Position numbers and translations under genes: made by a program
Part shown: piece by piece, positions 6,075-60,545 of the stretch
Layout: each line of letters begins with the position of its first letter
Numbering within the stretch: the first letter of the stretch is position 1
Notes under the pieces: generated by a model
The model's database searches: none
The model's input: the letters and a program-made list of their open reading frames with translations, nothing else
Told to the model about the DNA's origin: nothing
NCBI GenBank assembly: GCA_964016885.1
Contig: OZ024743.1
Coordinates: forward strand, 251,782,001-251,846,000
Length of the DNA stretch: 64,000 nt
Origin: Eledone cirrhosa
Lineage: Eukaryota
Reading direction: 5' to 3'

Positions 6075-6203
6075 TAACGAAGGAATTGTGGTAAGGAACC
6101 AGATGGACCATAACGCACCAGAGTACTCAATACTTAAGGTAGTAGAGTGGGTAATAGGAAAATGTTTAACCTGGCTCTGCCGTCGGGGTCATACCTTTTC
6201 CTA
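6075..6203 (-). mobile_element. HHR-3'-half mini-element (PLE-derived), copy 1
   Basis: Shares the tail gtggtaaggaacca..gagtactcaatactt..gtagtagagtgggtaataggaaaa and ctctgccgtcggggtca with the 34208 copy; flanked by (TA)n. Confidence 0.75.
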
Positions 6204-6278
6204 TATATATATATATATATATATATATATATATATATATAATATATAAGATCAAAAGATGGTTAAAAGAGTTCCATG

Positions 6279-6349
6279 TATTTTATTATGCGCATTTCAA
6301 AAACAAATATCATCATGCGATGACATTTGCGCTTTCGTCAGATAAAATA
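6279..6349 (-). ncRNA. Type I hammerhead ribozyme
   Basis: Minus strand reads tattttat CUGACGA aagcgcaaatgtcatc-gcat-gatgatatttgttttt GAAA tgcgca UA ataaaata. Stem I is a perfect 8 bp and stem III is palindromic (atgcgcat). Confidence 0.88.
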
Positions 6350-6739
6350 GGGAGACATGATATGAAGGTTAAAAAACACTTGTGAATAGTGCAGTTTTAA
6401 ATCAACATATGAAAAGTAGTTTTAGATTGATGTGTGATATTGGGAAAAAAATAGAGGAGGGGGGTGGAAAGGATGAAAAAGAGGAGGAGATGAGAGTAAA
6501 AAGTGGAGGGGGAGGAGTATAATAAGGAAGGATGAGATAGGAGGAGAGATGGGTGATAGAGAGAGAGAGATAGCTTTTATAACTGAGAAAAATATATTGT
6601 TTTACATAGAGAGGTTGAAAATTAACGAAGAGAAAGATTTTAGAATAATGTTAAATTAAGGTTTGTATATTGAAGGGTTTAATAATATGTGCGATGAAAA
6701 GAAATTGTTAATATGTATTATTAAAAAATATAAAAATAG

Positions 6740-8772
6740 TGTAGCAGGAGTTGCCTCCTTTGTTGTGACACTCACATCCCCAATAGATTAACGCTCTCTA
6801 GACAGGAAGTAGAACCCTTTCTGTAACTTCCGGTCAGAACCCTATAAAACTAACAACTTTAAGTTCTCTCTCTCTCATTCGCCTTTTCGGCTCCTGGCCT
6901 TCGCCAGGAGTCGTCGCCCAGGCGCGTTCACCTGGCAACCAAACGGTAACTAATAATTTTGTTTCATTCTCTCATCTATTCATTGACATGTCAACTATAC
7001 TGTTCTATATATCTACAAATTGTTTATTAAATATTATACACAAAAACCAATCGTCTTTGTTACATTCATACACACCAATAATTTGTTATAAGTGGTCACC
7101 CCGAAAAAAGAAAAAAATAGCAGAATCTGGTGTTGTGTGAGTAACATTACGAATACACAGCAAATTTTATTGACAAACTATGAAAATACTCAGTCAAAGA
7201 AACGCACACACGCACATGTGAAATTTTCGTGCAGACAGACTCTTTTTCCCTCACGCATCCACTAACTGTTGCAGTTCACTGTATATATATATATATGTTT
7301 CTCGTTTCTTACAACGAACATTTCAAGAACAAACAAAAAAAAAGAAATTTGATTTTAAAAAAAAAAACATTTCAACAGGAACATTTATTTTCGATGAACC
7401 TCAACCATTGCCTTTTTTTCATCGTTTTCTTCATCGTTCACAAAAGAAAAATTGAACTCGCCATATTTGTAATACTAAGTGAAGCCTTTTCTTTCTTTTT
7501 CATCATTGTCACTTTCACACACACATTTTTTTCAAAATGGCTGCCAACGACCTTTTGCACTATCATTTTGGCGCCATTTTCTCGTGCATTAGAATTTTTT
7601 TTTTTTTCAACTAAACCTTGTTTTGGCACGTGTAGGCAGCAGGATTCTCGACTCACGGAGATATCTCGATTCACTGAGATAGCCACACGCCAGGGATAAC
7701 GTTTCTCGCCAAGGATTCTCCAGCCTTAAGCTATATTCTCCTATTTGCCGGTTTAAAAATTTACCACGTAAATTTGCCGTTGAAAACTGCGCATTTATTC
7801 AGAATGCTTATTTCTTTGGTCGCTGGCCTCTTGACCCTTCCAGGTCAACGCATTCTCAACATCGACCATCAACTTCGGCTGTTATTTCTAGCACTTTGCG
7901 CAACTCATTTTTTCTGAAAAAAATATTTTTACTGTGAATTTAAACATCGAATACGCTCGCTCCGCGAGACAACAACATCAACAGCAACACAGCTTCATCA
8001 ACAACCAAAACCAGCAGAACAAGCCAGAGATTTTATTTTTGCAGCACTCTTCCTGTGAGAAAATCCATTCGGAGGTTGGAAATTTCACGATATACCACAG
8101 AACAGAAACCACCTGCATTCATTCTCTGGAACACACTTTCTTTCCTGCTGTCATGTGATTGCACACCTGTGAACTATATTTTGTACATTTGAACTTTGAG
8201 CTCTTCTCTTACTTTATTACATTGTATCTTTGGGTGATGGATAGATAGATGTCCAGTCGTTCTCTGGCCAAGAGGGGTTGGCTACTTTGATATCTATCAT
8301 TGATTTTTGCAAACATTATTTTTTTTTTTCGTAATTTTCATGCCTGTTACAACATTCTCGCCAACTTACTACATACGTATTTCATTCGATTTTTATATTT
8401 TAAAAATATGGCGGGAGATAATGTAGCAGGAGTTGCCTCCTTTGTTGTGACACTCACATCTCCAATAGAGTAACGCTCTCTAGACAGGAAGTAGAACCCT
8501 TTCTGTAACTTCCGGTCAGAACCCTATAAAACTAACAACTTTAAGTTCTCTCTCTCTCATTCGCCTTTTCGGCTCCTGGCCTTCGCCAGGAGTCGTCGCC
8601 CAGGCGCGTTCACCTGGCAACCAAACGGTAACTAATAACTTTGTTTCATTCTCTCATCTATTCATTGACATGTCAACTATACTGTTCTATATATCCACAA
8701 ATTGTTTATTAAATATTATACACACAAACCAATCGTCTTTGTTACATTCATACACACTAGTATTTTGTTATA
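6740..8772 (+). mobile_element. Non-autonomous LTR retrotransposon (TRIM-like, Gypsy-type features)
   Basis: 351-bp LTRs at 6740-7090 and 8422-8772 (~8 mismatches by eye), ATAG TSD at 6736-6739 and 8773-8776, PBS at 7093, purine tract at 8410-8421, no gag/pol motifs seen. Confidence 0.92.
7093..7104 (+). promoter_or_regulatory. Primer binding site, tRNA-Trp-like
   Basis: tggtcaccccga lies 2 nt after the LTR, one mismatch from TGGTGACCCCGA (complement of the metazoan tRNA-Trp 3' end). Confidence 0.7.
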
Positions 8773-9229
8773 ATAGTAATGTAATTAAGGATATATTGTG
8801 AAAAGAAGTAGAAGAGTGGAGGAATAAGTGTAATATGTATAAGTTAGATGAGCATGAAAGGGAGAAAAAAAATGAATTGAGGATGAATAATCTAACGTCA
8901 AAAAAATGTTTATGTTTACGAAGGATTTTTCAAGGTGATATAAAGTATTTAAAAGGGTAAGGATATATTGTGGTGAGTAATAATGAGAATTGAGAAGTAT
9001 CTAGGAAGAAAAGGTTTTTAAAGGTTTTTAGAGGTTAGAAATTAAAAGAAAAAGAAAAGAAAAAAGGAAAAGAAAGGGAAGTGATATAGAATGAGTAACT
9101 AGTATTATATAATGTATAATAAATAACATTGAAATAAGGTAGAAAGATGGGTATATTTTTAAAGAAATATATATGTATATATATATGTGCCTTTGAGAAA
9201 AGGATTTTAAATTGGTAAAGTATTAGATA

Positions 9230-58592: not shown

Positions 58593-58626
58593 TCTCTCTC
58601 TCTCTCTATATATATATATATATATA

Positions 58627-58976
58627 TCATCATCATCATCATCATCATCATCATTTTACGTCCGCTTTTCCCTGCTTGCAAGGGTGGGACGGGAACTGAT
58701 TCTGGCTTGATTTCTACAGCTGGATGCCCTTCCTAACACCAACCTCATTTACAGTGAGTGCTGGGTGCTTTTTTGCCATGGCACCTCCACGACCACGTTG
58801 CAGTGGAATGATAGGGACCCCAGTCCCTATCATCTCATTTCTACAGCTGAGTAAACTGGAGCAATGTGAAATAAAGTGTCTTGCTCAAGGAAACAACACA
58901 TCACCCGGTCTGAGAATTGAACTCACAACCTTTCGATTGCAAGGCGAATGCTCTAACCACTAAGCCATGTGCTTCC
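58627..58976 (-). mobile_element. SINE family B, full length
   Basis: Reverse-complement match to 25889-26224. Confidence 0.9.
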
Positions 58977-60087
58977 ATATATATATAAAAAACTATATAT
59001 ATAGGACTCTTTCTTTGTTGAAACTATGATTGCCAGCCACGAAATATGGAAGACTGTTTGCCAAGAAGGTATAAAGAGCATTGAGAAATCTCATTTAGCC
59101 CACTTCCATGAGATAAGATTTAACACCAAAGTTCAGTCAGGCATTCCAGCCTGCTGTTCTGTTTAAGATAGTCACCTACACCAAATATGGATTGATGTGT
59201 ACATCAGCAGTTGGTTTGAAGTGCCATTTAAGGCATAAACATCAAACAATGAACTGAAAAACTGTTGAACCCTCATACATAGAATTGACAGGAGAGTCCA
59301 TCATATATAAGTCCAGCATGTAGATGTAGAGAACTTACATTGTAGTGTAGAAAAATAGGATGAGAGAATAAAGGAAGAGAGACAGGGTGGTGTAAATATA
59401 TATATATATATATATATGTGTGTGTGTGTATTTAACAAGGAAAATAAAATAGAAGTTGAAGATAGATTCATAATTAGTTTTAGGATTGTTTCAAAGAATT
59501 GGCTGATAATGGTCAATTTTTCTCAAAAGGATGACGGTGAGATGGATCAGGAATTTTGAGACTAGAAATAGATGGTGACATAATCACTACTTATTAGTCA
59601 ATATATCAATTTACTATGACCAATCAACTCTCTGAAATGATTGTAAGACAATGAAATAATTAAGAACCTATCTTCGACTTTTGCTTTATTTTCATTGTTA
59701 AATACACACACTCATATATATATATATAAATGACTCTCTACCTAGAGTAGAATCTTTGAGAGAATGTTATGTGATGAGAGCCTACAACAAAACTATAGCT
59801 CTCACTGCCTAATATTGTTGAAACCATCCTTTCAAGACTGCATTGAGTTCTAATAATGCTATCAGGCCCCTCCATAAATAGGTGCATACCAATATATAAA
59901 CACACGCACTCGCACTCACACACACACTCACACACAGCCACACACTCACATGCACACACCCACACACACACACATATATGTATGTATGTATGTAAAAGGT
60001 AAACAGAAATAACAAAAACAACAACACAAACGGCACAGTACATGGAAGAAATATATTAGTTTAACGCTTGAAACACCAGGAAGAGAG

Positions 60088-60123
60088 TCTTAACGTTTCA
60101 GACACTAGTGCTTCATCAGAAAA
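60088..60123 (-). ncRNA. Minimal hammerhead-like motif
   Basis: tttt CUGAUGA agcactagtgtct GAAACGUU aaga; stems are weak. Confidence 0.5.
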
Positions 60124-60348
60124 TAGCATTAGAAATGGAAGATAGATACAGTGACAAGAGGAGGGAATGGTGAAATATGAGGAAAAAAAAACACACGTGT
60201 GTATTTAGTTGGCCATGATACATACATATATAAATACACACACACACTCATATATAAGCATATTATATATATATATATATATATATATATATATATATAT
60301 ATATATATATATATATATATATATATATATATATATATATACAATATG

Positions 60349-60545
60349 ATAAGATTCAGGACCCCAACGGCTGAGTTCCAGCCGTTTCAACAGCTAGATC
60401 CGAACAGTTGGATCTAGCTGTCGAAATGGCCGGAGCTCAGCCGTCGGGGTCCTGACTCTTCTCTTATTACCCACTCTACTACCCCAAGTATCGAGTACTC
60501 TGGTGGGTTATGGTCTACCTGGTTTTTACCACACCCTATGTAATA
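60349..60545 (+). mobile_element. HHR-3'-half fold-back mini-element, copy 9
   Basis: ~53-bp arms; tc GAAA tggc-cggagctca-gccg TC ggggtcc; family tail. Confidence 0.8.

Follow-up and report, generated by a model that had tools for sequence, protein, structure and literature searches.

The window analysed here, a 64,000-nucleotide stretch of Eledone cirrhosa DNA (contig OZ024743.1, positions 251,782,001 to 251,846,000), holds nine short repeats, most of which retain only the 3' half of a hammerhead ribozyme and fold back on themselves. Analysis of these copies and of their relatives in the 3.0-Gb assembly indicated that they are remnants of a retrotransposon. With a probability of about two in three, we read them as extremely 5'-truncated, head-to-head insertions (stubs) of a Hydra-type Penelope-like element (PLE), each generated by two target-primed reverse transcription events. 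The original prediction for this window had described PLE retro-products that look like miniature inverted-repeat transposable elements (MITEs), and this part of it was borne out by the discovery of a parent element with an intact frame for a reverse transcriptase (RT) and a GIY-YIG domain and with a complete type I hammerhead. The element type and its anatomy are already known, and we infer the two-ended mechanism and a footprint of ribozyme cleavage.

Positions within the element are given relative to the predicted cleavage nucleotide C17 of an intact parent locus (L079:3089), which is taken as 0, with minus values upstream and plus values downstream. All nine copies lie at the predicted places. 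A blastn search of the window with all nine as queries gave no tenth cluster, and a profile search recovered the same nine, with no match in the reversed sequence. The copies span about 57–205 bp, in line with the predicted range of about 60–200 bp. Six of them (22465, 29211, 34208, 34927, 58441, and 60349) are self-complementary, as had been noticed, and the copy at 6075 adds two opposed arms with minimal overlap (+99 to +3 and -10 to +19); in all, seven copies are two-armed with opposed arms, and two (15068 and 42147) consist of one arm that lacks the tail. The predicted consensus needs correction for the copy at 29211, which lacks both GAAAC and the GTC triplet, and for the copy at 6075, which lacks GAAAC. 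None of the nine contains CTGANGA, as stated before. The tail, present in seven of the nine, is about 80 bp long (+20 to +99) and not about 90 bp. The predicted preference for (TA)n was also recovered, as a strict test places a TA tract next to 12 of the 18 copy ends, where the background is about 6%.

To trace the parent, 30 loci were fetched with the tail of the copy at 34927, three of which reach 5' through the whole hammerhead; locus L018 is a palindrome with 720-bp arms. Walking upstream led to a 3,537-bp tandem unit with a 786-residue open frame (719 residues from the ATG at +191). The 5' leader of the parent open reading frame (ORF) begins with what had been called the tail, and the frame runs on directly from it. 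The single ORF encodes a telomerase-like RT with a YRDD motif and, at the C terminus, a GIY-YIG domain (VIY...AYIG). The structure model of the parent protein has a predicted local distance difference test score of 88.5, with TERT as the best fold match (E 2e-8), while the Pfam search assigned no family and the PDB sequence search returned no match. The protein carries motifs of the Hydra clade, namely SDKT116, CNCPDRSIC572 (CxCx5C linker), CNLC670 (CxxC), and CKH698 (CxH); the motif list comes from PMC8557442. A single Cys lies between VIY and AYIG, so that the GIY-YIG core contains no two-cysteine CCHH. The N-terminal motif is RWR, and both RWK and RWR are found among 16 relatives. In the genome, all 57 scored matches to the parent protein are 99–100% identical, most of them without internal stops. 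The architecture of PLEs is present as well, with pseudo-long terminal repeats (pLTRs) from partial tandems, an inverted 5'-truncated copy, and a tail at one end. On these sequence features, the parent is classed as an intact endonuclease-bearing PLE of the Hydra group, and it probably represents a new family of this known clade. The searches did not recover a complete parent of subfamilies D and E.

The pLTR of the parent contains a complete type I hammerhead motif, at L079:3000-3100, with the core UUGANAA (U3-A8), a described variant of PLE hammerheads (PMC4209133). CUGANGA is therefore missing even from the parent, and the expectation that a 5' extension would reach a PLE ORF with a CUGANGA ribozyme was right about the ORF and the complete hammerhead but not about the core. 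Among 42 matches to a core regular expression in the fetched loci, 39 read TTGANAA (one by chance), three read CTGAGAA, and none reads CTGANGA; in subfamily C, 99 of the 100 listed complete motifs (198 in all) start with TTGA. The minimum free energy fold of the parent ribozyme is a three-way junction of type I, and 92% of the cells are paired in fourteen ribozyme copies of subfamilies A and B. This fold and pairing count covered A and B copies only; the stem II of subfamily C differs from theirs by compensatory pairs, as judged by eye. No hammerhead was found among the listed 150 of 234 Rfam matches in the window. The tail contains a bulged-hairpin motif (+26 to +47, for example at 35018–35045), which is kept in 42 copies across subfamilies A–E, and by eye the 3' end of the coral element Hydra-2_Amil has the same architecture. 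This motif lies between the two RT start sites and is a candidate protein-binding element; its covariation within the genome is uninformative because the motif is conserved in sequence.

Analysis of the outer ends revealed that they are not variable but fixed at two sites. A pattern for subfamily A was matched to one contig (C1), and the sample, drawn from the first 100 matches in the list after exclusion of the long element L079 and of a pair with a spacing of 1.9 kb, comprised 105 arms in 61 listed elements (L391 was counted as two owing to a tie). The outer ends of these arms are fixed at +19/20 or +99. This arrangement matches the tail of the Anolis element Poseidon PAc, which is bounded by two internal RT start sites and for which extension of both target strands was reported in vitro (PMC11167929). 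In 43 of 44 pairs, one arm is tailed and the other tail-less, the exception having a damaged tail; no pair is double-tailed, nor is any in a separate set of 36 distinct pairs. A TA tract adjoins 96 of the 105 arms, compared with the background of about 6%, and target-site duplications are unreadable inside such tracts.

The inner ends of the same arms are concentrated at two places. Seventy-three of the 105 fall between -33 and -44, none between -45 and -77, and six further up; of the rest, 16 lie between -6 and -32 and 10 between -5 and +2. The mode of the longer arms is at -39/-40, and some of the -40 ends were moved to -43/-44 by chance extension. Including the long elements left out would lift the long share to about 10%, in agreement with 2,162 exact matches at the ribozyme core, 80 nt upstream, vs 22,103 at the cleavage site; about 90% of arms are shorter than 150 bp. 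The same type of gap from -45 to -77 is seen in subfamily B, in a sample biased by its own query. In two independent runs, the summed depth of contigs of unknown type rises about 14-fold at -41 (X1), and a contig switches strand at -30 (X5), indicating that the end pattern is not an artefact of this assembly. The motif TTAGTY/TCAGTY, which we take to be initiator-like, recurs in subfamilies A, B, and C with its A at -40. An extra G, examined as a cap signature, precedes 6 of 13 arms ending at -40, and several of these are common to the partner arm. In L384 and L394, the complementary DNA (cDNA) jumps from -39 or -43 to ORF-internal sites, which fits a physical RNA end there. The pile of inner ends at -33 to -44 would mark a predicted transcription start at about -40, in loop II of the ribozyme.

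The second concentration is found in very short palindromes (inner gap of at most 24 nt), of which 516 were counted. Among the first 50, classed by eye, 27 have both arms ending at +1/+2, and 20 of these carry extra bases, mostly A/T; in 17 the join lies within stem III, four are ambiguous, and two are mixed. The window copy at 29211 belongs to the +1 class. This pile may represent the end of the predicted self-cleavage product, that is, a footprint of ribozyme cleavage. Junctions show overlaps of 0–2 nt or short inserts, which are sometimes templated. Two further arrangements were observed. In L393/L394 (G000:C1:27,009,290-27,010,250), a unit spanning -43 to about +213 is repeated head-to-tail, which suggests either successive end-to-end template jumps or a circular template of small size. 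At the inner junction of a long palindrome (L352:2671-6242), a 55-bp piece of the PLE ORF is present in about 64 tandem copies.

The stubs are abundant. Across 59 stretches of 10 kb, taken at even spacing, a profile built from natural copies detected 17 clusters, corresponding to 16 elements (one long palindrome merged); reversed sequence gave none. This gives an estimate of about 81,000 elements genome-wide (46,000–132,000), and the density in the window is about five times the genome average.

Comparison of the two arms of single elements bears on how they arose. Forty long loci were considered, and 24 of them are simple two-arm palindromes (the other 16, which gave no hit or were incomplete, complex, or tandem, were left out). 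In 11 of the 24, the tail-less arm exceeds its partner by more than 50 nt, and in 11 the tail arm is the longer; among short pairs, the tail-less arm is longer in 19, the tail arm in 16, and the two are equal in 8. The tail arm of L324 ends near +57 and that of L336 near +55, the other arm covers -101 or -37 to +19, and the arms have nothing in common, so that two priming events are needed. The lengths of the two arms correlate strongly, a short arm having a short partner and a long arm a long one: the ribozyme core is present in both arms in 29 of 63 core-bearing elements, compared with 3–8% expected under independent arms. Eight same-strand tandem neighbours were also found, and tandem units run through the ribozyme. 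The alleles of the two arms agree at -3 in 42 of 44 pairs, and the rare +12 allele is common to both arms in 17 tail-selected pairs. On the simplest reading of the allele sharing and of the matched arm lengths, one RNA, or RNAs from a single source, served as template for both cDNAs. Discordance at +12 in seven tail-selected pairs was considered as a sign of two RNA templates and rejected, since the selected allele is rare (1 of 100 listed places) and later mutation together with the choice of query explains it.

In the favoured mechanism, the GIY-YIG domain would cut both strands of a (TA)n tract, and each 3' end would prime reverse transcription internally on the element RNA, one at +19 and the other at +99. 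[quoted passage not shown] The cDNA ends would then be trimmed and joined via microhomology of 0–2 nt or short inserts, leaving the stubs as dead-end by-products. For PLEs at large, we put at slightly better than even the chance that obligate two-ended priming by one complex explains the inverted pLTR and the one-sided tail, and that the stubs form a fossil map of germline RNA 5' ends, with a promoter in the ribozyme and in vivo cleavage by the U3-A8 hammerhead.

Several observations weigh against this account. The fold of the ribozyme is no more stable than that of shuffled sequences (z 0.41), and no compensatory pair was found in the fourteen A/B ribozyme copies. A TATA-like box at -69 in subfamilies A and B is missing in C, which weakens it as backing for the -40 start. 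The long locus L078, which is among the 16 dropped from the arm-length comparison, has two tail-less arms. The 17 of 50 joins inside the self-complementary stem III indicate that sequence-driven annealing also shapes junctions, and for the anole element PMC11167929 detected no RNA reads with ends at the cleavage site. Finally, a hybrid course fits most short copies equally well: a fold-back of one cDNA, after run-off or stalling, would be combined with priming by the other target end at the second start site, and the strands would anneal. Such a course accounts for one tail per element, for allele concordance, and for either arm being longer. It fails, however, to account for the non-overlapping arms or for palindromes with no loop, for example those whose centre is the cleavage site, and it requires fold-back priming on 0–2 nt of homology; we consider it unlikely.

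The mechanism first proposed for this window, in which the RT stalls in the ribozyme structure and a single cDNA folds back and copies itself, fares worse and appears improbable. Self-priming has been proposed for rotifer Penelope palindromes, and junction palindromes are read in this way in PMC3846280; it agrees with the near-constant match of arm alleles and with inner ends falling in stem II and loop II. Under self-priming, the tail-bearing arm is the template and should be at least as long as its copy, whereas the tail-less arm often exceeds it (in 11 of the 24 long pairs and in 19 of the 43 short ones), and a copy cannot add sequence that its template lacks, as the arms of L324 and L336 would require. 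Many junctions leave only 0–2 unpaired bases, and an intrinsic stall predicts independent arm lengths and rare tandems, in contrast to the correlated lengths and the eight tandem neighbours observed. Self-priming is thus contradicted as the sole or general mechanism. Marginally less probable again is a self-propagating non-autonomous family, similar to short interspersed nuclear elements (SINEs) or to retrozymes, in which transcripts of short copies, palindromic or solo pLTRs, would be mobilised in trans. RNAs starting at -40 could come from solo pLTRs, some junctions recur, stubs outnumber core-bearing arms by about 10:1, and L393/L394 contain head-to-tail repeats. The junctions are nevertheless diverse, the recurrent ones carry the tail on either side, and the stubs lack the ribozyme core, with it the 5' half of the ribozyme, and all sequence upstream of -44. 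The retrozyme-like alternative of the original prediction is likewise not supported: retrozymes need at least two tandem units with a complete hammerhead (10.64898/2026.07.22.740005), while the core is present in none of the nine window copies and their arms are head-to-head. A MITE, that is, a DNA-transposon derivative with fixed-length terminal inverted repeats, can be dismissed almost entirely: the inverted arms, the TA at both ends, and the fixed outer ends, which the original prediction had reserved for such an element, are present to the letter, but the fixed ends are PLE tail boundaries, the stub sequence belongs to an RT-encoding element, of which it is the 3' end plus the tail, and the arms are asymmetric and continuous in length up to kilobases.

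The nine copies of the window belong to five subfamilies or close to them. The subfamily B stub at 6076–6203, with TA tracts on both flanks, has its tail arm on the minus strand (6076–6171, +99 to about +3) and its tail-less arm on the plus strand (6174–6203, -10 to +19). Single tail-less arms of subfamily B occur at 15068–15127 (minus strand, -40 to +19) and 42150–42206 (plus strand, -37 to +19). Two-arm stubs that are old and diverged lie at 22466–22641 (subfamily D, tail arm on the minus strand) and 58441–58590 (subfamily E, tail arm on the plus strand). The subfamily C stub at 29210–29338 turns at the predicted ribozyme cleavage site, with the tail-less arm on the minus strand (29210–29231, +19 to 0) and the tail arm on the plus strand; the other two-arm stub of subfamily C, at 60341–60545, has a tail-less arm on the minus strand reaching -39 and a tail arm on the plus strand. 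In the B-like two-arm stub at 34208–34405, the tail arm on the minus strand extends to about -40 and the tail-less arm on the plus strand starts from -38. The two-arm stub of the young subfamily A at 34927–35098 has the tail-less arm on the minus strand (+19 to -27) and the tail arm on the plus strand (about -20 to +99), and 122 of 126 bases are identical to the intact parent L079.

Other repeats were observed in the window. The stub at 22466–22641 lies in the spacer between two head-to-head fragments of a long interspersed nuclear element (LINE; 20232–25292), which are 93–95% complementary and which we take to be RTE-like. The stretches 166–2719, 48927–51147, 60544–62641, and 58910–58967 hold LINE fragments with endonuclease/RT frames and a tRNA-like match that scores 35 bits and probably marks the head of a SINE. 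Further families of Hydra-type PLEs have left remnants, with 40–52% identity to the parent protein, at 9248–9685 (minus strand), 11593–12736 (plus strand), and 36726–38222 (plus strand). An unexplained inverted pair of 539 nt (36188–36726 and 41387–41925) is 100% complementary over a distance of 4.66 kb, and its left arm adjoins the 5'-truncated PLE fragment at 36726. It represents either a very recent event or an assembly artefact.

In comparison to known elements, the parent resembles Hydra-1_Obim in its C-terminal GIY-YIG domain, the DKT motif, the CxCx5C linker, and the CxxC and CxH motifs around conserved E and N (PMC8557442), and by eye the likeness extends through the whole RT. Hydra-1_Obim also prefers (TA)n (PMC8557442 supplement), and further features in common with the clade are a pLTR with a type I hammerhead, insertion into (TA)n, an inverted 5'-truncated copy, and a tail at one end. 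Unlike the Hydra elements described there, the unit is 3,537 bp and not generally below 3 kb, the N-terminal motif is RWR and not RWK, the tail is about 80 bp and not 30–40 bp, the short arms predominate, and the ribozyme has a UUGANAA core with a long stem/loop II where the supplement gives CUGANGA. Poseidon PAc of Anolis belongs to another clade but likewise has an AT-rich target besides the two start sites bounding its tail; both target strands were cut and extended in vitro and a dimer is predicted, and the available part of PMC11167929 draws no link from the two start sites to the arms of inverted insertions. The minimal hammerheads of PLEs, among them the U3-A8 form of Schistosoma Cercyon, show U3-A8 covariation, a short helix I, a long helix II, and a palindromic loop III, similar to those described here, and they also occur as opposite-strand pairs 100–700 bp apart, mostly in truncated copies (PMC4209133). 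Here, by contrast, helix III has 5–6 bp, and the 3' half is all that most copies retain of the ribozyme. Non-LTR retrozymes are likewise small PLE-derived repeats with type I hammerhead sequence, but are head-to-tail with complete ribozymes, whereas the stubs are head-to-head with half a ribozyme (10.64898/2026.07.22.740005). In the open-access text searched, neither two-ended priming of PLEs nor a genomic footprint of ribozyme cleavage was found, and the available part of the Octopus vulgaris repeat annotation (PMC13282606) mentions no palindromes, Hydra elements, or ribozymes.

The formation of tandem and inverted structures and the function of the hammerhead are listed as open questions for endonuclease-bearing PLEs in PMC8557442. 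A young family with intact ORFs and an estimated total of 80,000 short insertions makes both accessible to junction counting and bench tests. As the stubs resemble MITEs, they are likely to be misannotated as DNA transposons. In LINE-1 twin priming, both target strands prime cDNA, and a 5' inversion joined by microhomology results; the second priming site lies upstream, giving an inversion without duplication. In the Eledone elements, unlike LINE-1, both proposed priming sites are fixed and lie 80 nt apart, giving an inverted duplication.

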